DNA of 64,000 bases from Podarcis gaigeae (lineage: Eukaryota): NCBI GenBank assembly GCA_964106915.2, contig OZ066914.1. The stretch is one strand, 5' to 3'. The notes below the pieces were generated by a model that was not told where the DNA came from, did not search any database, and worked only from the letters and a program-made list of their open reading frames with translations. This document shows, one piece after another, positions 6,574 to 63,780 of the stretch. Numbering within the stretch: position 1 is the first letter of the stretch; the number at the start of each line of letters is the position of its first letter. A program made the position numbers and the translations under genes.

Positions 6574-6940
6574 AAAAAGGTAAAGGTAAAGGTACCCCTG
6601 CCCGTACGGGCCAGTCTTGACAGACTCTGGGGTTGTGCGCCCATCTCACTTAAGAGGCCAGGGGCCAGCGCTGTCCAGAGACACTTCCGGGTCATGTGGC
6701 CAGCATGACAAAGCTGCATCTGGCAAGCCAGAGCCGCACATGGAAACGCCGTTTACCTTCCCGCTGGTAAGCGGTCCCTATTTATCTACTTGCACCCAGA
6801 GGTGCTTTCGAACTGCTAGGTTGGCAGGCGCTGGGACCGAGCAGCGGGAGCGCACCCCGCCACAGGGATTCGAACCGCCGACCTTTTGATCGGCAAGTCC
6901 TAGGCGCTGAGGCTTTAACCCACAGCGCCACCTGCGTCCC
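6574..6940 (-). mobile_element. Sauria SINE, full length
   Basis: Minus strand begins GGGACGCAGGTGGCGCTGTGGGTTAAA and ends in an (ACCTTT)n tail; 13-bp TSD TAAGGCAAGCATA at 6561-6573 and 6941-6953. Confidence 0.92.
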
Positions 6941-16512: not shown

Positions 16513-16648
16513 CAGGCATCTCCAAACTCAGCCCTCCAGATGTTTTGGAACTACAATTCCCATCATCCCTGACCACGGGTCCTGTTAGCTAGGGATGATG
16601 GGAGTTGTAGTTCCAAAACATCTGGAGGGCTGAGTTTGGGGGTGACTG
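16513..16648. mobile_element. Palindromic hAT MITE (in probable SBF2 3' UTR)
   Basis: Near-complete self-complementarity; perfect 8-bp TSD GTCTTAAC. Confidence 0.9.
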
Positions 16649-17311
16649 GTCTTAACTGTAATTAGTAAAAACAAGGCAATTTGAACCCATATTTTACAAA
16701 GCTGGAGTATTTTCACTAATGATAGTTAATAGCAGGTACAGTTTAGAAACAAATGTGGTTGATGTAAAAGGGAAGAGGGAGTTTCATTCTGCTCAACACA
16801 AGTGTGCTAGAGGTGAGGAAGGGAGCATATTAGTCCAAGGCTCATTGTGGCTTTTCATTCTAACATCAAACCATGGTTTACAATCTCATGTGAACTGGGT
16901 CAACCAACTAACCAAACTGACTTCATTTATAGAATTTCAGTTACTGAAATTGTTTACCTTTTTTTAAAAAAAACCACTACTTTTTCTATATTTTTTTAAA
17001 GTAAATAGTGAATACAGATTTCACATTGTACTCAGACTAGGAAATACATCTGTTTTAAATACATTGGAATCCCAAAAACAAACAGGAATGAAGGATTTTT
17101 CTAGCATTTTCAGCCAATAAACCACCACCTATGAAAAATGGTGTTTGCACATTCATGTATTTTTCTTTGTATATGAAGTACTTTTATATGTACTTTGTAT
17201 AATTATTCTGTTCTATAGTTGTTTAAAATGTACACTACTTCTATGGTTGTAACTAGCCAATTTTAATTATTTTATGTATGTTACATAACTAGTATATGCT
17301 AACCAACTTGT

Positions 17312-18663: not shown

Positions 18664-18799
18664 CAGTGTTTCCCAACCTTGTGCCTCCAGATGTTTTTGG
18701 CCTACAACTCCCATCATCCCTGACCACTGGTCTTGCTAGCTAGGGATGATGGGAGTTGTAGGCCAAAAACATCTGGAGGCACAAGGTTGGGAAACACTG
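18664..18799. mobile_element. Palindromic hAT MITE
   Basis: TIR CAGTGTTTCCCAACC; perfect 8-bp TSD ATCTAGAT; same internal core as 16513-16648. Confidence 0.92.
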
Positions 18800-19539
18800 A
18801 TCTAGATGACTATACAGGCCATTCATTACAGGCACCTGGTGCCAACTGAGTTGGTGCTACTGTTTAGTTTTATTACAAATGAAGGAACCTGTCTAGCCTG
18901 TATTACTAAGACCTGGGTGAGTTGGGCAGAGTGGATTTGATTCAAGGTTTAACAGATATCTGGTGCAGCATCCACCTTGTTTGGAGGTCCAGAGAAGGGG
19001 AGTCTCTGTGGCCCATAGAGTTTGTGTCTTGTTCACCAGGAAGCCTTTCCATCCTGGGGTGGGCTACGAAGGCCTGTACCTTGGTAGCCTCAAGGTGTGG
19101 TGTTGGGAGAATTCCATGGCACTGGTTCTGGTAGCTCAATAGCTCTATCAAGTGTAGGGTAAGATCAAAACGTCATGTTCTCCATGAAATCCATGGGGCT
19201 GTTCAAAGTTGTCAGCAGCCCAATGCATAGGATGTCACATACATACCCTGATTTGGTCTTTACCTCAGGGTGTGAGGGGTGGTGGTCTGAATATGGGTGG
19301 AGAGGGAGAGGTTTGAATTAACCTTTGTCATGGTCAGACATGGTTATGTTTGGTCTTACATCATGTGTCTTCCTCCTACAGTTGTGAGGGGTCCTTCATA
19401 GTGTCCACTGCCAAAGACTTGTGGAATTAGAGGAAATTATTAATGCTTTGGGGGATTTTCCAGAAGTCAGAGCCCGCAATCCTGCTAAGACCTTCATTTT
19501 AGTATGGAATAGCAGCAATCCAGCTGCAAACACTCTTGA

Positions 19540-20458: not shown

Positions 20459-20811
20459 TAAAAGGTAAAGGGACCCCTGACCCTTAAGTCCATTCGCAGA
20501 TGACTCCGGGGTTGCAGCGCTCATCTCGCTTTATTTGCCAAGGGAGCTGGCGTACAGCTTGTGGGTCATGTGGCCAGCATGACTAAGCCACTTCTGGCGA
20601 ACCAGAGCAGTGCATGGAAACACCATTTACCTTCCCGCCGGAGCGGTACCTATCTATCTAATTGCACTTTGACGTGCTTTCAAACTGGTAGGTTGGCAGG
20701 AGCAGGGAGCGAGCAACGGGAGCTCACCCTGTTGCAGGGATTCAAACCTCCAACCTTCCGACTGGAAAGCCCTAGGCTCTGTGGTTTAACCCACAGCGCC
20801 ACCCGTGTCCC
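20459..20811 (-). mobile_element. Sauria SINE
   Basis: Same family sequence as 6574-6940. Confidence 0.9.
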
Positions 20812-28757: not shown

Positions 28758-29104
28758 TGCTGTAGGTTAAACCACAGAGCCTAGGACTTGCCAATCAGAA
28801 GGTTGGTGGTTCGAATTCCCACGAAGGGGTGAGCTCCCATTGTTCGGTCCCAGCTCCTGCCAACCTAGCAGTTCAAAAGCACGTCAAAGTGCAAGTAGAT
28901 AAATAGGTACCACTCCAGCAGGAAGGTAAACGGCGTTTCCGTGTGCTGCTCTGGTTTGCCAGAAGCGGCTTAGTCATGCTGGCCACATGACCCGGGAGCT
29001 GTCTGCGGACGAACGCCAGTTCCCTCGGCCAATAGAGCGAGATGAGCACCGCAACCCCAGAGTCGGTCACGACTGGACCTAATGGTCAGGGGCCCCTTTA
29101 CCTT
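28758..29104 (+). mobile_element. Sauria SINE, slightly 5'-truncated
   Basis: 14-bp TSD TAAGCTGCCTAGAA at 28744-28757 and 29105-29118. Confidence 0.9.
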
Positions 29105-29129
29105 TAAGCTGCCTAGAAATGATGCTGTC

Positions 29130-29889
29130 TGTCAGAGCCACCCGTGGTCCCAGCTCACAAGAGACCAAAGTCCAGTCCAAGTTATATACAAAAGGTTTTA
29201 TTGAAGAACATTGTTGGCATTACATCCAAGCTCCGTGGCTCCGGATCTGTTACTCTTAGATCGTAGAAGTCCCCTCTGAGTCAGTCCCGCCCCTGCACCA
29301 GCTTAAGAGGCTTGTACTGCTCCACCTTTTCCTCTCCTTCCTTTTCCGCAGGGTCTTCCTGCCCCCCTGTGCTCCCTCCCTTCGGGACTCCCCCGAGGCT
29401 GAGTCTTCTGACGCCTGCTCCCCCCTCCTTCGTGCTTTGGGACCAGGCTCCTCCTCAGGGCTCTCCTCATTTCCGCGCGCCTCCACATTTGAACTTGGCG
29501 CGCGTACGTTGCCTCTGACCTTCCTTTCGACCGTTACGCTACTCTCGGTACTACACTCCTCCCCTTCCGGCAGGACGTTCTGCTCCGAACTCCTTCCCCT
29601 CTCTGCTCCCTGTTCTGCTCTTTCTGACACACTGGCAACTCCACCCCCTTCACTCCGTTCCGACGGAGAGGCCGGTCCCGATCTCCAACCCCCACTGGGG
29701 ATTCCCTCTTCGTTCCCCTGCTTCTGACTGCTTCCCTCTCTACTGCCCCTTGGCCTGACCAGGGGGGCTCCTTTTTGGGAATCCTCGGATTCACTTGACG
29801 GACTCACTGACAACCTCGGGTCATCGTCGTCCTCTTCCTCGTCGCCCTGGGACCCCTCCCCCTCGCTCTCTGTCCCTGAAACCCTGACA
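29130..29889 (-). repeat. 3' LTR
   Basis: Copy of 34854-35613 (offset 5724); minus-strand AATAAA at 29197-29202. Confidence 0.96.
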
Positions 29890-32800
29890 TCCATCCCCCC
29901 CTCGAAGCCCCCCCTTCCCCCCTCCCGCCCATCAGGTGCAGGTTGTAGGAGCTGCAGCTCTTCGGAGGTGGATGCAGGATACAGGTTGTGTACCTCCATT
30001 TCCTCTGCTTGCAGTTCGGTGTATGAGTGTTCGAATTCGGGTTCTTGACCCAAAGTGTTCTCTTCTCCCTCTTCCATTGGTACCTCGTCTGGTGCTGCCG
30101 GCCAAGGTCCCGTCAGCCATTTCCTGCGCCAGTCCTCCTCTGGTTGCTCGTCCCACCAATAAGAGGGTTCTGTGTCCACCCCTGAGCACGATCCCCTGGG
30201 CGGGCTAGATTCTGGCGTTCTCTCCTCGGCTGAAGAAAAACCCCGGAAAGTACTGTCTGAGAGTGTGGGCGTAAAGAGCCAGTCATCAAAGTACTCGGCT
30301 GGCATGGGTCTATGCGGGAAAAGGGCATGGAACTCGTCTTTTAGAAGAGGTTCGTCTAAAGCGTAGCCCGGCACCCAACCGTTGGCACTGGCTGGAGTGC
30401 CCTCTGTGGCTAGAAAGTATTCTACCCCCTCTTTCCCCCATCTCGAGTCCAGGATTTCTGTGACCTCGTTGAGTGGTTCGGCCCTAGGCGCCCTCTCCCT
30501 CTCCTGTGACTTAGTGTGTAGTTGTGGGACTGTTTCAGACTCCTGAAACCTGTGCGGTGCCTTGTAGGGGGTGAGCACCGACCTGTGAAATACTGGATGC
30601 ACTCTGGAACCTTCGGGGAGGGCTAGTCGAAAGGCTACAGGGTTGATCTTAGCCTCCACCTGGTACGGCCCTAACTGCCTGTGCCCTAGCTTCTTCTTGG
30701 CCAACGACTTGGTTGGCATCGCTTGGGCCGCTAACCACACCCAGTCCCCCACCTGGATCTCCTCCCCCGCTCTCCTGCTTTTGTCTGCCTGCACCTTATA
30801 TGCTTGCTTGGCCAGCTCCAAATGTCTCCGCAACTCTTCGTGCACCTCCTGCAGCTCCGCTGCAAACTGGTCGGCTTCTTGCGGCACCCCCTCTCTCGGT
30901 GCCCCGAACCCCGGGAAGGTTCTGGGATGACGACCGTTGTTCGCGAAGAACGGCGTCACCCCCGTGGACGCGTGCTTCGTGTTGTTATAGGCAAACTCTG
31001 CCATCGGCAGGTAGTCCACCCAAGCTGCGGGTCGCTGATTGGCGTAACATCTCAGGTACTGCTGCATGATCGCGTTGACCCTCTCAGCTTGGCCGTTGGT
31101 CTGTGGGTGTCTCGCCGACATAAGGTTGATCTTGACGTTCAGGATACCTAAAAGCTTCTGCCAAAAATTGGAAACAAACTGGCGCCCCCTGTCGGACAGG
31201 ATGGACTGCGGCAGCCCATGCACCTTGAACACGTGATCGATGAAGAGTTTGGCAGTCTGTTCCGCCGTCGCCACCTTTGCGCACGGAATGAAGTGCGCCA
31301 TCTTGGTGAACAGGTCCACAACCACCAGTACCGCCGTCTTCCCTCTGGAGCTGGGCAGGTCAGTAACGAAGTCCAGGGCTACCCTCTCCCACGGTTGCTG
31401 TGGCGTTTCCAGCGGTTCCAACAGCCCCGCTGGCTTCTGGTGTACTGGCTTGAACCTCTGACAAGTGTCACACCTGGCGACGTAATCCGCTACCTCTCCG
31501 CGCATCCGGGGCCACCAAAAGTCCCTTGCCACCAGTTCTATTGTCTTCTCCTTACCGAAGTGGCCAGCACTGGGGGCGTCGTGCAACTGCTGCAGAACCT
31601 TTGCGCAAAGCTCGTCGCTTGGCACGTAGAGGGCACCTTTGCGAGTTAGCAGTCCGTCGCGCAGTTGGAACTCTTCTCCACTCTGCACACCTCTGCGCAA
31701 CTCCTCCATTTTGGACTGTGCGAACTGATCCACTTGCAACGCGCGTCGCACCGCGTCCAGATCTACTGTGATGGCAGCGCACGACCACGCCTGCGGTGCG
31801 AAAATGTGCTTGGCTGCTACTGGCGCCGCTTCATCGAGATATTGCGGTTTCCTGGATAGCGCATCGGCTATAACGTTGGAATCTCCTGGGATGTACTCTA
31901 TCCGAAAGTCGAAATCCGCGAAGAATTCCGCCCAGCGCATGTGTCTCTGGCTTTGGAGCTTCGCCGTGCGCCAATACTCTAGGTTCTTGTGATCCGTGCG
32001 GACCTGTACTGTGTGCTTGGCTCCTATGAGGAAGTGTCGCCACGCTTTGAAAGCTGCGTGAATGGCTAACAGCTCCCTGTCCCATATGGTGTAGTTTTGC
32101 TCCGCCTTGCTGAGCTTTCGGGAGTAAAAGGCACCGGGTCTCCAGTTTCCATGTGGATCTTCTTGCAGGAGTACGGCTCCAACCGCTCTGTCTGACGCGT
32201 CGGTCTCCACTCGCATGGGCCTGCCTGGATTCACGTGCAGCAGCTGCTCCTCGGAGGCGAAAAGGCTTTTAAGCTTCCGAAAAGAGCGCTCCGCCTGTTC
32301 CGTCCACACGAACCTCTTCTTCTTGGAACTCAGAGTGTCCGTGATCGCTGCCGTCTCCTTTGCAAAACCTCTGATGAATTTGCAGTAGAAGTTGGCGAAG
32401 CCGATGAATCTCTGGACTTCCTTCCGATTGCGTGGGCTCTTCCAGTCCAACACCGCACGGACCTTGACGCTGTCCATGGCGAGCCCCTTGTCGGACAGCT
32501 TGTAGCCTAAGAAATCCACCTCCGTCACATCAAACTGGCACTTCTCTAACTTGGCGTAGAGCCTGTTCTCCCGTAGTCTCTGCAGGACTTCTTTTACGTC
32601 CTTCTCATGGGCCTCTTCCGTTTCCGAAAAGATCAGGATGTCATCGAGGAAACACACACATTTCTTGTAGAGAAGTCCCGCTAGCACGTGATGCATAAAG
32701 GCTTGGAAGACGTGAGATCCATTTTGGAGACCAAACGGCATAACTCTGTATTCATACGTGCCCAGAGGCGTGAACATGGCCGTCTTCCACTCATCGCCCT

Positions 32801-33767
32801 CCCGGATGCGTATGAGGTTATACGCTCCACGCAGATCCAATTTGGTGAAGATCTTCCCCTTCCTCACGGTTGCTAGGAGATCATCTATCTTGGGCATGGG
32901 GAAGGCCTTGGGCTTGGTCATACTGTTTATGAACCTATAGTCCACAATGAGTCTTTTTTGGGGCGTGTCCTTCTTCTTTACAAAGAACACAGGACTGCCC
33001 CCCACTGCTTTCGATTCCCGGATGAATCCACGCTTCAAATTGTGCTCTATGAACCCCCTGAGCTCTTGCATCTCGTCCTCAGACATGGAATACAGTTTTG
33101 CAGTCGGCAACTGCGCCCCCGGCACCAGGTCGATGGCACAATCATAAGGTCTGTGGGGCAGCAACTGGTCAGCTTCCTTCTCGCAGAAAACCTCCAGGAA
33201 CCCTTCGTACTTGCTAGGTACTGCCTGCACCATGCCAAGTCGCAGCTGGTGCTCAGCCCCCTCCTCCTGGCAGGACTGGATGCAATTTTGAGCACAGTAC
33301 GATGAGCAAAAGGTGATCTGGCGTTGGTACCACGCTACAGCAGGACTGTGTCTCTCCAGCCAACTCATGCCTAATACTATAGGCGTGTCAGACAGGTGGG
33401 TGACATTGAAGCTAATGACTTCTCGGTGATCTCCTATCCGCATCACCATGGGAGGTGTCTGTTGCACAACTTGCCCTCCAAGCAATTTCCTGCCATCCAC
33501 CGTGACTACGTTCAGAGGCGTCGTGGCGGGCAGAAGCGCTATGCGATGCTGCTTGACGAATTGCATCCCCACGAAATCGGCGTTGCTCCCAGAATCGATC
33601 GTGAGGGGCACTTCTAGGGTGGTCCCATTTGGCAACTGAAGTGTTGCGGTGAGCTGCACCGCTGGCTTGGGTGGTAAAGGGTCTGTGGGTTGCAAAGACG
33701 CTGGGGACTGTTCTATAGATCCGCCTGGCTGAGCCCCAGCATTCGTGCTTACAGCCAGGCACTTTCG
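29256..33767 (-). CDS. pol: Pol (protease, RT, RNase H, integrase, chromodomain, long acidic/basic tail), expressed by -1 frameshift from gag
   Basis: IDSGSNADF (PR); LDLRGAYNLIR, MPFGL, FLDDILI (RT); ETDAS, RELLA, RTDHKNL, ADALSR (RH); HDAPSAGH..CDTC, LDFV, SDRG, QAERVN, GPY (IN); EVTEILDSRW..EYFL..GWVP (chromo). No internal stops. Confidence 0.95.
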   Translation of the reverse strand, partial: RKCLAVSTNAGAQPGGSIEQSPASLQPTDPLPPKPAVQLTATLQLPNGTTLEVPLTIDSGSNADFVGMQFVKQHRIALLPATTPLNVVTVDGRKLLGGQVVQQTPPMVMRIGDHREVISFNVTHLSDTPIVLGMSWLERHSPAVAWYQRQITFCSSYCAQNCIQSCQEEGAEHQLRLGMVQAVPSKYEGFLEVFCEKEADQLLPHRPYDCAIDLVPGAQLPTAKLYSMSEDEMQELRGFIEHNLKRGFIRESKAVGGSPVFFVKKKDTPQKRLIVDYRFINSMTKPKAFPMPKIDDLLATVRKGKIFTKLDLRGAYNLIRIREGDEWKTAMFTPLGTYEYRVMPFGLQNGSHVFQAFMHHVLAGLLYKKCVCFLDDILIFSETEEAHEKDVKEVLQRLRENRLYAKLEKCQFDVTEVDFLGYKLSDKGLAMDSVKVRAVLDWKSPRNRKEVQRFIGFANFYCKFIRGFAKETAAITDTLSSKKKRFVWTEQAERSFRKLKSLFASEEQLLHVNPGRPMRVETDASDRAVGAVLLQEDPHGNWRPGAFYSRKLSKAEQNYTIWDRELLAIHAAFKAWRHFLIGAKHTVQVRTDHKNLEYWRTAKLQSQRHMRWAEFFADFDFRIEYIPGDSNVIADALSRKPQYLDEAAPVAAKHIFAPQAWSCAAITVDLDAVRRALQVDQFAQSKMEELRRGVQSGEEFQLRDGLLTRKGALYVPSDELCAKVLQQLHDAPSAGHFGKEKTIELVARDFWWPRMRGEVADYVARCDTCQRFKPVHQKPAGLLEPLETPQQPWERVALDFVTDLPSSRGKTAVLVVVDLFTKMAHFIPCAKVATAEQTAKLFIDHVFKVHGLPQSILSDRGRQFVSNFWQKLLGILNVKINLMSARHPQTNGQAERVNAIMQQYLRCYANQRPAAWVDYLPMAEFAYNNTKHASTGVTPFFANNGRHPRTFPGFGAPREGVPQEADQFAAELQEVHEELRRHLELAKQAYKVQADKSRRAGEEIQVGDWVWLAAQAMPTKSLAKKKLGHRQLGPYQVEAKINPVAFRLALPEGSRVHPVFHRSVLTPYKAPHRFQESETVPQLHTKSQERERAPRAEPLNEVTEILDSRWGKEGVEYFLATEGTPASANGWVPGYALDEPLLKDEFHALFPHRPMPAEYFDDWLFTPTLSDSTFRGFSSAEERTPESSPPRGSCSGVDTEPSYWWDEQPEEDWRRKWLTGPWPAAPDEVPMEEGEENTLGQEPEFEHSYTELQAEEMEVHNLYPASTSEELQLLQPAPDGREGGRGGFEGGMDVRVSGTESEGEGSQGDEEEDDDDPRLSVSPSSESEDSQKGAPLVRPRGSREGSSQKQGNEEGIPSGGWRSGPASPSERSEGGGVASVSERAEQGAERGRSSEQNVLPEGEECSTESSVTVERKVRGNVRAPSSNVEARGNEESPEEEPGPKARRRGEQASEDSASGESRREGAQGGRKTLRKRKERKRWSSTSLLSWCRGGTDSEGTSTI
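29890..29903 (-). other. Polypurine tract
   Basis: GAGGGGGGGATGGA immediately 5' of the 3' LTR TG. Confidence 0.9.
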
Positions 33768-33773
33768 TTTCCC
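33700..33773 (-). promoter_or_regulatory. Programmed -1 ribosomal frameshift signal
   Basis: Slippery G GGA AAC (33773-33767), 6-nt spacer, stem 1 GCCTGGCTG/CAGCCAGGC, stem 2 GCTGGGG/CCCCAGC. Confidence 0.88.
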
Positions 33774-34792
33774 TGAAGCTCCTCTTCTTGGATCACTTCT
33801 GCTGCTACTGTTGCTAAAGCTGCAGTGTGTTTCTGGAGCCTCTGGGGGCACTCTTTCGCCATGTGCAGTGCACTGTCGCAAATGTAACACTTCCTGGTTC
33901 CTCTAGGAGGCTTCGCCTTTACTGCACCGGAAGCTGGGGCTCTGGCTGTTGCTTGAGCCTTAGCACCACCAAGTTCCATCGGCTCCTCCCCCTGCCTCCC
34001 CAGCGGCGAGGGATGTGACTGACTGAACTCCCTGGGGATGAAAGAAGACGTTCTCGCTGGTGGACGCACCTGACGTTCTTCCTCATTGTGCCAAGGACGT
34101 CCCTCGTGACGTATCCCAATCGCCAGAGCCCTCTGCACCACCTCCTCCAGGGTCTGAGGTCTGTCTCCCCTGGCAAGTTCGTCCTTTATGGGACCGCTGA
34201 GACCCTCCCAGAACAAATCCCTCACAGGTGTGCAGTCTTTCTCCCAGCGTAACGCAGTCAGTAAAGCAAAAAATCTGGAATGGTACTGACGCACAGTGGC
34301 TTTGTCTTGCCGCAGTCCAAATATCTCCCTGCGTGCAAGATCCAAATCTACGGTTGACTGGAAGCAGGCATCCATCGCTTTAATGAATTCATCAGAATCG
34401 CGGCGGGCAGGGCCATCTTCACGCCACAAATTGCGCAACCAGTCTCTGGCCGCCCCATACAAGTGAGAAACAATAAACCCCACTTTCTCCTCCTCATCTT
34501 TAAAGTCATGACGAAGCAAGTGCAATGCATACAAAACGTCTGCTCTGAAACTGGGGTAGTGCTTCAGGTTCCCATCGAAGTGGGTGACTAGGCTGCCCCC
34601 CCCCCGCCTTCCAAGTCCAATTCCCTCTGACCTGGACCCTGGGAACCCTTCCCTGCTTGCACGCTCCCACCTTGTTTGCAGGTCTTGGCAGCGCTTCTCC
34701 ATTTCGTCATGCTTCTTCTGAGACGCAAGGACTGCAGCGGTGAGTTCGGAAACTGTAGTTCGCAGTGCTGTCAGCTGATCCTCCGCACTCAT
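33749..34792 (-). CDS. gag: Gag (347 aa), coiled-coil N-terminus, capsid, CCHC zinc knuckle
   Basis: First ATG in context GCCATGA; LRQDKATVRQYHSRF MHR-like motif, EPMELG, CYICDSALHMAKEC. Confidence 0.93.
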   Translation of the reverse strand: MSAEDQLTALRTTVSELTAAVLASQKKHDEMEKRCQDLQTRWERASREGFPGSRSEGIGLGRRGGGSLVTHFDGNLKHYPSFRADVLYALHLLRHDFKDEEEKVGFIVSHLYGAARDWLRNLWREDGPARRDSDEFIKAMDACFQSTVDLDLARREIFGLRQDKATVRQYHSRFFALLTALRWEKDCTPVRDLFWEGLSGPIKDELARGDRPQTLEEVVQRALAIGIRHEGRPWHNEEERQVRPPARTSSFIPREFSQSHPSPLGRQGEEPMELGGAKAQATARAPASGAVKAKPPRGTRKCYICDSALHMAKECPQRLQKHTAALATVAAEVIQEEELQGNESAWL

Positions 34793-34840
34793 GGCTGTCA
34801 CCGTTTGTGAGCTTTGCAAAAAAAAAATTTGCGTTCTTTG

Positions 34841-34851
34841 AGAGGGGACTT
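34841..34851 (-). promoter_or_regulatory. Primer-binding site of self-priming type
   Basis: AAGTCCCCTCT, 2 nt after the 5' LTR; lacks the TGG of tRNA PBSs; exact complement of AGAGGGGACTT at 35001-34991 within the LTR. Confidence 0.8.
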
Positions 34852-34853
34852 AC

Positions 34854-35613
34854 TGTCAGAGCCACCCGTGGTCCCAGCTCACAAGAGACCAAAGTCCAGT
34901 CCAAGTTATATACAAAAGGTTTTATTGAAGAACATTGTTGGCATTACATCCAAGCTCCGTGGCTCCGGATCTGTTACTCTTAGATCGTAGAAGTCCCCTC
35001 TGAGTCAGTCCCGCCCCTGCACCAGCTTAAGAGGCTTGTACTGCTCCACCTTTTCCTCTCCTTCCTTTTCCGCAGGGTCTTCCTGCCCCCCTGTGCTCCC
35101 TCCCTTCGGGACTCCCCCGAGGCTGAGTCTTCTGACGCCTGCTCCCCCCTCCTTCGTGCTTTGGGACCAGGCTCCTCCTCAGGGCTCTCCTCATTTCCGC
35201 GCGCCTCCACATTTGAACTTGGCGCGCGTACGTTGCCTCTGACCTTCCTTTCGACCGTTACGCTACTCTCGGTACTACACTCCTCCCCTTCCGGCAGGAC
35301 GTTCTGCTCCGAACTCCTTCCCCTCTCTGCTCCCTGTTCTGCTCTTTCTGACACACTGGCAACTCCACCCCCTTCACTCCGTTCCGACGGAGAGGCCGGT
35401 CCCGATCTCCAACCCCCACTGGGGATTCCCTCTTCGTTCCCCTGCTTCTGACTGCTTCCCTCTCTACTGCCCCTTGGCCTGACCAGGGGGGCTCCTTTTT
35501 GGGAATCCTCGGATTCACTTGACGGACTCACTGACAACCTCGGGTCATCGTCGTCCTCTTCCTCGTCGCCCTGGGACCCCTCCCCCTCGCTCTCTGTCCC
35601 TGAAACCCTGACA
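34854..35613 (-). repeat. 5' LTR
   Basis: No differences from the 3' LTR seen by eye; ORF-track translations are identical in several frames. Confidence 0.96.
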
Positions 35614-40448: not shown

Positions 40449-40800
40449 AAAGGTAAAAGTACCCCTGACCATTAGGTCCAGTCGTGACGGACTCTGGGGT
40501 TGCGGCGCTCATCTCGCTCTATGGGCCGAGGGAGCCGGCATTTGTCCACAGACAGCTCCCGGGTCGTGTGGCCAGCATGACTAAGCCGCTTCTGGCGAAC
40601 CAGAGCAGTGCACGGAAACGTCATTTACCTTCCCGCTGGAGTGGTACCTATTTATCTACTTGCACTTTGACATGCTTTCGAACTGCTAGGTTGGCAGGAG
40701 CTGGGACAGAGCAACGAGAGCTCACCCCGTCGCAGGGATTTGAACCGCCAACCTTCTGATCGGGAAGTCCTAGGCTCTGTGGTTTAGCCACTCGTGTCCC
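40449..40800 (-). mobile_element. Sauria SINE
   Basis: Family sequence; TSD AATAAATTTAATA at 40433-40445 and 40803-40815. Confidence 0.9.
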
Positions 40801-52499: not shown

Positions 52500-55400
52500 G
52501 GATTATTAGAAGTTTTAACATTAAACAGACATCTCTTAATAACAATAAAAAGCCAGAGAAATGTTGATTTGGGAGAGTCTCTAAAATTCCCTCACAGATG
52601 TTCTTCAAATCCTGGTCTCTCAGCCTCCACAGGCACACAACTAAGGGAATATAAAACACTGTGCTTCAGGATTTCAAGCCAGTATTAAACTATTCTTAAA
52701 ATCCTTATTTGGAGTCTTGTTTGCCAAATCTAACACCTCATGGTGGTTGCATTCCTCTGCAGCTGACCCAGGCACTGAAACCTGCGGAATTTTGTCAGAG
52801 GCTTGGAGTAAATGACGATGCATCTTTGCCATGGCATTGCCACAAATATATGTCTATTAAATTTTTTTACTGAGATTAGCATAGGGTAGACGCAAGAGTC
52901 CTTTCAGGCAGGTGTTTATTGTGGAATTGTTGCTCCTCATGCCCACAAGTTTCTTCTTGTTGTTTTTGCAGTGTCCACATGACATCATCATCAAAATACT
53001 GGCCCCTTACTGCTGCAAAAATATGGTAAGTAAAAATAACTCTTTACACAAATCTGCAACCACTGCTGGTGTGGAAACACATTTGCACAAGGGAATAGCA
53101 AGGAATATAATGACTGGGAAAAATGAGATGTGTAGAAATGTGCATACAGAAAAACTGCATCTGAATGAGCGAATTGTGATGGAAGGTTTCCATCTGGAAG
53201 CTCCCTTAGTATAGGCAGAAGTCTGAAGAGTGACTTCATGGGGAAAGTGCTCACTTTGTAAGGTCAATATATCAAGCTGGGAAATATCCCAGGGAAAGAT
53301 CCATGAAAGCGTAAGTATTGATGTGGAGAGCTACATCTTAAGTAAATGTAGCAACCACTGGACACCCATCTATTTTCATCTTTCATTATATGAGTCCATT
53401 CCACAGCCCCTGCAGAAGAGATTCTGTTGGATAAAGCATAATACCATAGCCAGTGAGGTGGTGTTAACAGAAGCCAAAATTGTCATTCATTGTATCAATA
53501 ATTTTAGTTCTCTTGCACAGTCTTGTGGAGAGAGAGAGAGAGAGCACATTTTGCATGGGGATTCTGATTCTAGCCACCACGCAGGTTGGTGGAACATGCA
53601 TAAGCCTATTACACCCTCATTCTGCCCTCTTCTGGGTCCTAAAGGCCCCGCGCATCAGCAGTCACACATCAACTGGATGTGCACAAAATGGTCACCATCT
53701 GTATATATGATGGTCAGCAAAGATGGAAATAGTTATGAGCACAGCCAGAAAAGAAATGAAAGTATTGAGGAAGCGGGCATGGAAAGGGAGTATCATAAAG
53801 GGGCAAATGATCTGCCCACCCAAAAGCCCACTGAAACAAGTCATCTATGACCCTGAGCAGTTTGGAACCTGACCTACCCCCAATTTATTGGATTATCCCC
53901 ATATCAGGTAAACCCAAATTTACAAAGTGAAAAACATTGAGATTGTGTTGTTGGAGTTAACTCCATGCAGACTAAACAAATAAACTGGGGATGCAGACAA
54001 CTGCAAACACCATAAAATCCCATGTAGACAAGCCCATGGTTAGGTGAGCCTCAATTTCTCTTGGGTTCTCTGCAAAGGCACATGGCTCTCCATTTCATTA
54101 ATTAAATGGTTAATCAGAATCACCAGCTTCTTGACCAGTGACACCCCACCCTGGGCCAGCCTCTTATTTTGAAGGTTGGGCTGTCCTGCAATGCTACTTG
54201 AACTAGTCTCTCATAATCACAAGTAGCATTCTGCATCTGGTGCAATCCACCCTAGAAAGGGCACTTTTCAGGTCAGGAAAAGAATGGAGCACAGAAGGTG
54301 GGTCTGGCTTTGTGGTAGAATCAGCTCCACAGGGAAGCTGCCCTTTTTTTAAAGTCACATTTGAATAGAAGAATGATATGTAGCAAGGAAACAGGACCTG
54401 GAATAAATAAGCACAAAGCACATTTCCTAGAAAAATGTGTTTAAGTACAGGTTGTAATCTTACGTGTGGTCTGACCTTTAAAGTTAGAGCACCCATGGTG
54501 GATGAAGAAAATAATCTAACTGACCAAGGAAGAGTACAATAATTGCACAATAAATTACCTATATATTAGGAAGGATTCTTCCTAAGAGGACAAGCTGCCC
54601 CAATCCCACAAGGAATGAAAAAAGCTTAGGTTATGTTGTTTCTTCTTGCCAAAGCAACAAAAGGAGCTAAACAAAAATGCAAACTATTTTAATTGATCCC
54701 GCCTGGCTCCCTGGGGGATGATGTGTTCCTCGGCTTGCAGACAACAGAACCAAGGAAGTTGTCCCATATTCATCTGCCGATTGTCTACTCAGAAACGTGG
54801 AATGAACTGAGCACTAGCAAAAATGAGATCAGAGATTGGCTTGGAAGCATCTGAAGACAAATGCCTGCAAACTGGAGTCTCATACAGTAGTGCAGAGGCC
54901 AGGGAATCTCATTTTACTGTGGATTAGCTCTTTAAATCAATTGCTTTTCTTTTTCTTTATGAAGTGTTAGCTATGTGTATGTCATTGTGCATGCATTAGA
55001 AAAACCAGAAGAAAACTAATGCACGTGAGGGCTCCCAAGATGATGGAAGGAGGCCAAAGGAACAGGAATGAAGAAAATAACAAATCAATTATTCTTTCCA
55101 AGTATTTGCACATGCTCAAAGATGAATACTTTTACACCAAGTTAGAGCAGCTGTAATGGACATTATAGGATGGGCTGCACAAACCAGTGATCCAAGCATG
55201 GATTGAGAGGTGTTTAGCAACCCCCACTTCCATGTTTGCAGTCCTAGGCAGGCAGCAAAAAGCAGAAAGTTTATCACGCCCCTTGTATGCCACAACCTAT
55301 GCAAGTCTATTCTATAGAGCAGGGGTGGCTTTCCAGATGTTGTTGAATTCCAGCTTCCATCATCCCTGACTATTAGCCATGCTGCCTGGAGCTAATGGGA

Positions 55401-56162
55401 GTTGGAGTGCAATCACTTTTAATTATTTATATAGTTAAATACAATAATCAAGTACTAGGCTGTTAAAAATACTAGTGCTTAACAGAAAGATGTAGTTCAA
55501 TAAAACTGTATACCGTTATTATTAATAATTACCCTCCTATCCTATACAATCTACTGCTAGTATGCCCTGCTATCCTATACAATGGAAGATGCACTCTTCC
55601 ATTGTCTCCTGAGACAGACGGGTGCCAATTACAGTAACTTTTCCTATACATATTCCAATAGTTAAATAGCCTCACTCTGTCTAATAGTAGGACCAATGCT
55701 GCCAACGAAGTCCAGCCTTTATTTGCAGAAAATGATCTAACTGGGAATTAGCATCCTCAAACATTTTGCAAACCTGTAATAAGGGATTGGTCCCTACCAA
55801 AGACCGGAAAGCCAAACTCAAGCAAAGCTTGAAACACAGAGGAAGTGAGAAAGGAAGCTTGTGGGTATTTGTTTCTTCTCCCTCTCCCTCCACCCCACTA
55901 CAGCCAATAAATAAAGAGAACTAGCTTTAGCCAGGTTGTGTTACTGAGGGCTCACCCAGACTTCTTTTCATGCCACATCTCTAAGCACAGGTCTGCGGAA
56001 AACCCTAATTGCCGTTTGTTCCATTTCAGTGTTAAGGAGCAGGTTTTCACACGGGAAATGCCAGGAAGGAGCTCTCAGACATGGCACTTTAAAGTGCAGG
56101 TTTGTGCCTAGAAAGTGGGGCAAAAGGTACATGTGGATGAGCCCTGGATCACCACACCCCCT

Positions 56163-61701: not shown

Positions 61702-62092
61702 AGGGTGGCGCTGTGGTCTAAACCACTGAGTCCCTTGGGCTTGCTGATCTGAAGGTCGGCAGTCTGAATACATGCGACGGGGTGAGCTTCTGTTGCTCTG
61801 TCCCAGCTTCTGCCAACCTAGCAGTTCAAAAGCACACCAGTGGAAGTAGATAAATAGGTACCCCTGCAGCGGGAAGGTAAATAGAGTTTCGGTGCGCTCT
61901 GGCTTCCGTCACGGTGTTCCGTTGCACCATAAGTGGTTTAGCCATGCTGGCCACATGACCTGGAAAGCTGTCTGTGGACAAACGCTGGCTCCCTCAGCTT
62001 GAAGCAAGATGAGCACCATACCCCATAGATGCCTTTGCCTGGACTTAACCGTCCAGGGGTCATTTACCTTTACCTTTTACCTTACTTTTACC
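61702..62092 (+). mobile_element. Sauria SINE (different subfamily)
   Basis: GGGTGGCGCTGTGGTCTAAACC head, (TTTACC)n tail; TSD TAATCTGGAATCA at 61689-61701 and 62093-62105. Confidence 0.9.
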
Positions 62093-63458: not shown

Positions 63459-63780
63459 GGGACACGGGTGGTGCTGTAGTCTAAACCACAGAGCCTAGGA
63501 CTTGCCGATCAGAAGGTCGGTGGTTCGAATCCCCGCGACGGGGTGAGCTCCCATTCCTCGGTCCCTGCTCCTGCCAACCTAGCAGTTCGAAAGCACATCA
63601 AAAGTGCAAGTGGATAAATAGGTACTGCTTCAGCAGGAAGGTAAATGGCGTTTCCGTGCGCTGGTCACATGACCCAAAAGCTGTATGCCGGCTCCCTCGG
63701 CCAATAAAGCGAGATGAGCGCCGCAACCCCAGAGTCGGCCACGACTGGACCTAATGGTCAGGGGTCCCTTTACCTTTACC
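63459..63780 (+). mobile_element. Sauria SINE with internal deletion
   Basis: GGGACACGGGTGGTGCTG head, ACCTTT tail; near-TSD TATGTC(T/C)CCACCC. Confidence 0.9.

Follow-up and report, generated by a model that had tools for sequence, protein, structure and literature searches.

LTR retrotransposons copy their primer during plus-strand synthesis, and the primer copy anneals to the PBS of the minus strand at the second strand transfer. The PBS of tRNA-primed retroviruses and Ty3-type elements is restored in each cycle by this copying. To our knowledge, bench proof of priming by an element's own RNA (self-priming) exists for fission yeast only, and self-priming in vertebrates has been inferred from complementarity. 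For Tf1, published reports describe a three-duplex 'pretzel', in which the primer:PBS duplex is joined by two helices next to the PBS (bioRxiv 2022.12.06.519325), a cDNA 3' end that consists of a PBS copy plus untemplated bases (PMC11042837), and strong template-independent synthesis (PMC3035444). Other reports, with reference to Butler et al. 2001, describe self-primers in yeast and vertebrate members of the Tf1/sushi group (PMC6317226, PMC4600332), record the V-clade in sauropsids (PMC2774666), give TGTYANR and CNTNACA as the start and end motifs of Sushi LTRs (PMC3601003, Table 3), and report for L1 that the cap is copied by RT as an extra base (PMC11702581). Self-priming is thus already known from Tf1 and has been proposed for vertebrate sushi elements, to which the lizard families described below are an addition. 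Our literature search returned nothing on lizard self-priming, on covariation in vertebrates or on a genomic footprint of rewriting at the PBS end; the classic Tf1 papers and Butler et al. 2001 may already describe bases at the PBS end that are cap-derived or untemplated.

The window analyzed here, a stretch of 64,000 nucleotides, carries on its minus strand a Ty3/gypsy LTR retrotransposon (35613-29130, 6484 bp) that contains the PBS site. We consider it likely, with a probability of about 0.9, that this site belongs to the priming region of a young, multi-copy lacertid Ty3/gypsy family (family A), whose PBS covaries with its own LTR, and which is primed in the Tf1 style by the 10-11 nt at the capped 5' tip of its own RNA. 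The features of the element are as follows.

34854-35613, minus strand: 5' LTR, 760 bp, TGTCAGG...CTGACA, same sequence as the 3' LTR
35026-35031, minus strand: TATA-like CTTAAG of presumed function, first base 30 nt upstream of 35001
34991-35001, minus strand: predicted self-primer, expected to form the initial 11 nt of the RNA, with a 10-nt core at 35000-34991
34959-34967, minus strand: R arm of the R:U5 helix, CGGAGCCAC
34921-34926, minus strand: AATAAA polyadenylation signal
34876-34884, minus strand: U5 arm of the U5:leader helix
34857-34865, minus strand: U5-end arm of the R:U5 helix, GTGGCTCTG
34852-34853, minus strand: 2-nt spacer GT between LTR end and PBS; the offset is 2 in families B and C too
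34841-34851, minus strand: PBS, AAGTCCCCTCT; almost no variation at positions 1-10, very strong variation between copies at position 11 (34841)
34838-34840, minus strand: C after the duplex (predicted cap copy) and variable tail positions, of presumed origin
34805-34813, minus strand: leader arm of the U5:leader helix; its AGCTCAC is retained in the sister families, although their leader differs and is longer
33749-34792, minus strand: gag ORF, ATG at 34792, stop at 33749; Retrotrans_gag, Ty3_capsid
33767-33773, minus strand: GGGAAAC slippery-type heptamer, within the gag/pol overlap
29256-33902, minus strand: pol ORF, 1548 codons stop to stop
29890-29903, minus strand: polypurine tract
29130-29889, minus strand: 3' LTR, 760 bp

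The element has the characters of the Ty3/gypsy class, with TG..CA LTRs, gag, the order PR-RT-RH-IN, a polypurine tract and no env. Pfam searches identified the capsid in gag, and protease, RT, RNase H, integrase and a Tf2-like SH3 domain in pol, and the best match of the RT among solved structures was Ty3 (4ol8, 7q5b). Comparison of Gag with solved structures gave no match, and a search for Gag homologues returned 8 unnamed proteins. At the gag/pol junction, the heptamer suggests a -1 frameshift. The chromodomain is weak or degenerate in the window element (PF00385, E 0.0027, 18 bits, below the 25.1 cut-off), whereas those of the family B and family C Podarcis proteins score above the cut-off. 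The first-pass annotation had called the element intact, which holds for its identical LTRs and its open gag and pol; however, the flanks (GACGA at 35618-35614 and GACAG at 29129-29125) form an imperfect 5-bp target duplication despite the identical LTRs. We also observed that the pol frame reads through the whole U3 of the 3' LTR (29889-29256; also 35630-34980) and stops ∼20 nt past the predicted RNA start, so that the promoter and self-primer are also coding. The Pol tail encoded in U3 is long and acidic, followed by a basic RKRKERKRW stretch, and the same U3-coding arrangement was seen in the Podarcis proteins and LTRs of families D and B.

When compared with Tf1/Tf2 of Schizosaccharomyces pombe, the element shares a PBS of ∼11 nt complementary to the RNA 5' end (predicted in the lizard element), three duplexes, and a Tf2-like SH3 domain in the integrase. 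In contrast to Tf1/Tf2, it resides in a vertebrate and its gag and pol occupy separate frames, with a slippery heptamer where they overlap; it also has a degenerate chromodomain, a 760-bp LTR whose U3 encodes the Pol tail, and a leader arm 27-67 nt from the PBS, and hundreds of lizard copies record variation at the primer end. As in retroviruses and Ty3, the PBS lies directly past the 5' LTR, but it has no TGG and no tRNA match (partial tRNA set), and its probable primer template is its own LTR. With respect to Sushi elements of the V-clade (Sushi-ichi, Amn-ichi/ni/san), the LTR start fits TGTYANR and the LTR end fits 4 of the 5 fixed letters of CNTNACA, as these motifs are given in PMC3601003. 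The nearest RTs were Podarcis muralis proteins (96-86%, 70% and 54%), then those of Anolis, snake, gecko, amphibian and fish, and fungal Tf2-named proteins, so that a lacertid host is likely. In an RT tree of 28 rows, built with no reference Sushi/Amn sequences and no non-chromovirus outgroup, the RT of the element fell in a squamate clade (SH-aLRT 97) beside fish/amphibian and fungal Tf2-named proteins. Judged from sequence, membership in the Tf1/sushi V-clade is likely.

All seven words quoted in the first-pass annotation were found at their minus-strand coordinates, including the exact complement of the PBS at 35001-34991. The annotation had also described the PBS as lacking TGG, and TGG is absent from the first 9 nt past the LTR in 94 of 94 family copies. 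By the own-LTR complement criterion in the methods of PMC6317226, the PBS is of the self-priming kind, being complementary to its own LTR over at least 10 nt and lying 0-5 nt past the LTR. The 11-nt match proposed earlier is found in a minority of copies, the window copy among them, but the family-wide core is only 10 bp: in a set deliberately enriched for T and A variants, the 10-bp primer:PBS core was intact in 90 of 94 copies and the 11-bp duplex in 17. To evaluate chance matches, LTRs were simulated with a Markov model, and a complement of at least 11 nt arose in 221 of 20000 (∼1.1%), and one of at least 10 nt in 951 of 20000 (4.8%). None of 4884 mock PBS positions in the internal region reached a 10-nt LTR complement. 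A single 11-nt match is, on its sequence, modest evidence alone (p about 0.01), and the weight comes from relatives.

Comparison of the PBS with tRNAs gave no good match. The tRNA set was partial, with 52 matches at 30 loci yielding 28 distinct ARAGORN calls (some spurious) for 9 amino acids, and the best match to the family A PBS in this set was 7 nt long and internal, while identity to tRNA 3' ends did not exceed 6 of 12. The PBS is thus not complementary to a tRNA 3' end in this partial set, as is the case in vertebrate Tf1/sushi elements.

The two supporting duplexes that had been noted, TTGTGAGCT/AGCTCACAA and GGAGCCAC/GTGGCTCT, are present as quoted, with one G-U pair in the latter. When the RNA was folded from 35001 or from 35000, the primer:PBS and R:U5 helices had probabilities near 1, and the whole 212-nt fold had a z of -2.0. 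The U5:leader helix crosses the primer:PBS helix, forming a pseudoknot; accordingly, its probability was 0 in a nested fold that included the primer, and 0.57-0.88 once the first 11 nt were removed. The full three-duplex pretzel was found in families A, D and E, and was incomplete in B and C: no R:U5-end helix of at least 7 bp was found in family B, and the side helices of family C are weak. The leader word AGCTCAC is kept while the leader lengthens from 27 nt in family A to ∼60-70 nt in the sister families, and the U5:leader words are kept across differing leaders but are invariant, so this helix provides no covariation. A leader hairpin, GCAAA...TTTGC (34832-34816), brings the leader arm near the PBS, and the A:T boundary and the length of its A/T run differ strongly between copies.

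Related families in the same genome were located via diverged Podarcis proteins and were sampled by sequence patterns. Each of three further lizard families (RTs 54-90% identical) carries a PBS of its own, to which a stretch of 10-12 nt in the LTR of that family is complementary. While the PBS of family A is AAGTCCCCTC(T), five variants were found in the D/E group (AAGCTCCATCT, AAGTTCCGTCT, AAGCTCCGTCT, AAGTCCCGTCT and AAGTCCCCTC(T)). Every variant has its counterpart ∼148 nt upstream, within the LTR of the same element, and an exact 10-12-nt LTR complement was present in 21 of 27 retrieved D copies. Family B (RT 70%) carries the 11-nt PBS AATC[T/C]GACAGT with its own complement, and its variable pair switches between T:A (20 of 40 parsed copies) and C:G (16 of 40), with 3 copies discordant and 1 misparsed. 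The PBS of family C (RT 54%) is TTGCTCCCGC, with a 10-nt LTR pair; 1 of the 20 loci sampled had no LTR pair, and automatic ends were wrong in several (L162, L169, L170, L180, L186). All families have a common geometry, in which the PBS is offset 2 nt from the LTR, the base predicted to come first is a purine preceded by a pyrimidine, and the sequence ∼30 nt upstream contains an A/T-rich word. This word is CTTAAA at the same place in the other aligned relatives, and also in one family A copy. Two side observations concern the same LTR segment: R/U5 of family C (L168-L187) is a variable tandem repeat, with 189-293 nt from primer to LTR end, and neither family C nor family B has an AATAAA downstream of the primer within the LTR.

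Compensatory changes between the PBS and the start of R, which had been proposed as a check on the earlier claim, were found in the A/D/E group and in the family B switch. Among 24 aligned A/D/E copies, 97.9% of 479 primer:PBS and R:U5 cells were paired, and two-sided changes occurred in 3 of 11 primer:PBS pairs and in 3 of 9 R:U5 pairs. Two-sided cells numbered 42, compared with a shuffle mean of 14 (0 of 500 shuffles as high) and with 0-3 in slid controls, although these copies are kin and their relatedness inflates the cell counts. The number of pairs with a two-sided change (6) was not above the shuffle (171 of 500).

The distal end of the PBS varies between copies. In the first 100 of 295 family A matches, tallied by eye, position 11 was C in 76, A in 14, T in 9 and G in 1, whereas positions 4-10 had 1 change in 700 cells and position 12 was nearly fixed (2 changes per 100). 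The search patterns fixed the first PBS bases, where variation is observable only in 30 BLAST-found copies, and there was none in these 30. On trees of 89 copies, a set enriched for T and A from which rearranged or long-branch copies (L046, L062, L063, L025, L003) were left out, the position 11 column required 28 parsimony steps, whereas none of 1880 other columns needed more than 8. When the tree was built from gag only or from the LTR only, its 28 steps compare with 28.8 for shuffled labels, so that position 11 has no tree signal on either flank, indicating that its state arises at individual insertions. A similar boundary was seen in D/E pairs at least 97% alike, in which PBS positions 1-10 were identical in 131 of 133 pairs, base 12 in 119 and base 13 in 37. 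Among 81 D-group places (by eye, after removal of 19 double-listed rows), position 11 was T in 76, A in 2 and C in 3, and position 12 was C in 78 and G in 3; after T11-C12 (73 of 81), position 13 was C in 29, A in 26, T in 16 and G in 2. The three G12 copies, two of which were checked, have an LTR complement one base longer, followed by C. C also directly follows the duplex in 99 of 100 family B copies and in 98 of 100 family C copies (position 11), and the LTR base at that place varies by family. In family A, changes at positions 13-14 were found in 4 of 16 T-class copies (L046 left out) and in 1 of 76 C-class copies (Fisher p 0.003). The tail of family B consists of a few inherited haplotypes, and that of family C is largely constant (by eye, about 29 of 100 copies deviate). 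With the B and C tails so much more stable, only A and D/E show a clearly random tail.

These observations suggest a mode of working like that of Tf1, which we regard as real and well supported in the lizard element. Pol II would initiate mostly at A35001. As folding and covariation suggest, the RNA tip would then pair with the PBS in a duplex stacked on the R:U5 helix and crossed by the U5:leader helix, as in the Tf1 'pretzel'. By analogy with Tf1, RT/RNase H may cleave past the duplex, and the freed 3' end would prime the minus strand 2 nt before the LTR end. The copy statistics suggest that plus-strand strong-stop synthesis proceeds to the very 5' end of the primer, where the cap is copied into a C and untemplated bases follow. 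A primer copy of this kind, made from a capped tip, would consist of the complement, a C and untemplated bases, and would mismatch the leader; after the second transfer, this version would be fixed in some of the new copies, and the PBS would be rewritten from the LTR. We propose this rewriting as the cause of both the covariation and the hotspot at PBS positions 11-14. If the PBS is rewritten, the T at 34841 of this copy is likely a rewritten base that records an RNA begun at 35001. The footprint fits a primer of 10-12 nt, with the element's own LTR as template and a start mostly at the A equivalent to 35001. A counterpart is the extra 5' G of full-length L1 insertions, which PMC11702581 attributes to an RT-read cap fixed in the genome; unlike in L1, plus-strand transfer would fix the cap-derived base in the interior of the element, where the PBS ends. 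Overall, the claim that the element self-primes gains support from the covariation and from the PBS-end footprint of primer copying. We lean, with less assurance than for self-priming itself, towards the view that lizard sushi-type elements write their own capped RNA 5' end into new insertions, as a primer copy, a cap-derived C and untemplated bases over the PBS end. The constant C after the duplex could instead stem from an RT preference for C addition, and the 14% A class at position 11 of family A is not predicted by simple primer copying.

Most family A copies pair over 10 bp, with C opposite A35001, which would indicate either frequent initiation at G35000 or a state inherited from the founder and rewritten only sometimes. 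A start mainly at G35000, with a 10-nt primer, C11 as the cap copy and T copies as products of minority 35001 starts, is conceivable for family A, but we hold it to be the less probable account. It would explain C11 in 76 of 100 copies and in nearly all sub-lineages, and has parallels in family C, where C follows a 10-nt duplex, and in the 10- and 12-nt classes of a few D and B copies. However, A|G is no pyrimidine-purine start and C|A is, the sister families, in which the spacing is likewise 30 nt, show T11-C12 in 73 of 81 copies, and in family A position 12 hardly varies, although this account predicts random bases there.

Two other explanations do without self-priming. Covariation demonstrates pairing and not priming, and the LTR:PBS duplex might be a structural or regulatory hairpin (for packaging, dimerisation or PBS shielding), with a tRNA fragment or other host RNA as primer; the 28 tRNA sequences cover only 9 amino acids, and an internal match may exist among other tRNAs. 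We judge this very improbable, since at least 7 different PBS words track their own LTRs, more than any one host RNA could keep up with, and the multiplicity of PBS variants makes a host RNA primer unlikely. In addition, the changes that extend pairing (T11, G12) match upstream LTR bases, as expected only with the element's own RNA as template, and the best tRNA matches were as short as given above. The match might also be chance or a relic in a G/C-skewed LTR, with the hotspot produced by recombination between co-packaged RNAs or by gene conversion; matches of at least 10 nt do occur in simulated LTRs, and tandem and recombinant copies exist. This reading is largely refuted, and has very little probability left, given four families with the same geometry, the compensatory changes, and a hotspot that is free of signal on either flank's tree and has four states, which recombination could not create. 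Self-priming from the element's own capped RNA remains the preferred reading.

Pol II initiates by rule at a purine preceded by a pyrimidine. The start at about 35001 proposed in the first-pass annotation has indirect support from its C|A step 30 nt after the TATA-like word, from the geometry of the relatives and from T11 in 76 of 81 sister copies. An index search for RNA runs that contain this stretch gave none. RNA reads of a related species (mostly 90-95% or less alike), mapped to the window and to a family D locus, yielded no usable 5' ends and gave no peak at the predicted start. Among the ends listed, the only tagged 5' ends lay 8-11 nt upstream of it, at a G-run. We do not take these for a true start, since the G-run resembles the switch oligo, and the ends likely reflect strand invasion.

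If the rewriting is true, the starts of germline transcription are preserved in genomes, insertion by insertion, as a fossil record. The footprint would then prove that capped self-priming takes place in vivo in a vertebrate, and would offer a sequence-only test for any proposed self-priming clade. PBS and primer would remain matched without selection on two sites, and the start would be predicted to one base. As a logical consequence only, abundant reptile elements would stand outside PBS-directed control by tRNA 3' fragments. In this vertebrate family set, genome sequence alone yields both evolutionary evidence (compensatory change) and mechanistic evidence (PBS-end rewriting).

Family A has at least 295 copies in the lacertid genome by a PBS-spanning pattern. 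The full-length copies retrieved had a median LTR-LTR identity of 99.6-99.8%, and most copies have 5-bp target duplications; the family is young and recently expanded. A pattern search for orphan cDNA ends (LTR end, PBS copy and unrelated DNA) found none, its 19 matches all being 5' LTRs with leaders, 18 from sister family E and 1 from a family A deletion. Tandem elements ∼5720 bp apart with one common LTR were observed at C3:53257579/53263300 and C15:99287281/99293001, and in L097 and L025; they resemble the Tf1/Tf2 tandem arrays that PMC11042837 ascribes to integrase-independent insertion. In one copy (L046, in the C32:14608774 region), an internal deletion fuses the PBS end to pol at a C-rich microhomology, and looks like an aberrant plus-strand transfer. 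Several copies lie within tens of kb of the starts of contigs C2, C9, C15, C23, C24 (first 60 kb) and C32, and some of those near contig starts are flanked by CCTAAC, a telomere-like repeat. Contig C32 is very rich in all families and is possibly the W chromosome. In the window, squamate-typical short dispersed repeats of SINE and MITE type were seen at 6684-6915, 16522-16652, 18673-18803, 20461-20791, 28758-29106, 40449-40789, 55332-55412, 61711-61917 and 63472-63778, and one of them starts ∼25 bp from the 3' end of the element.
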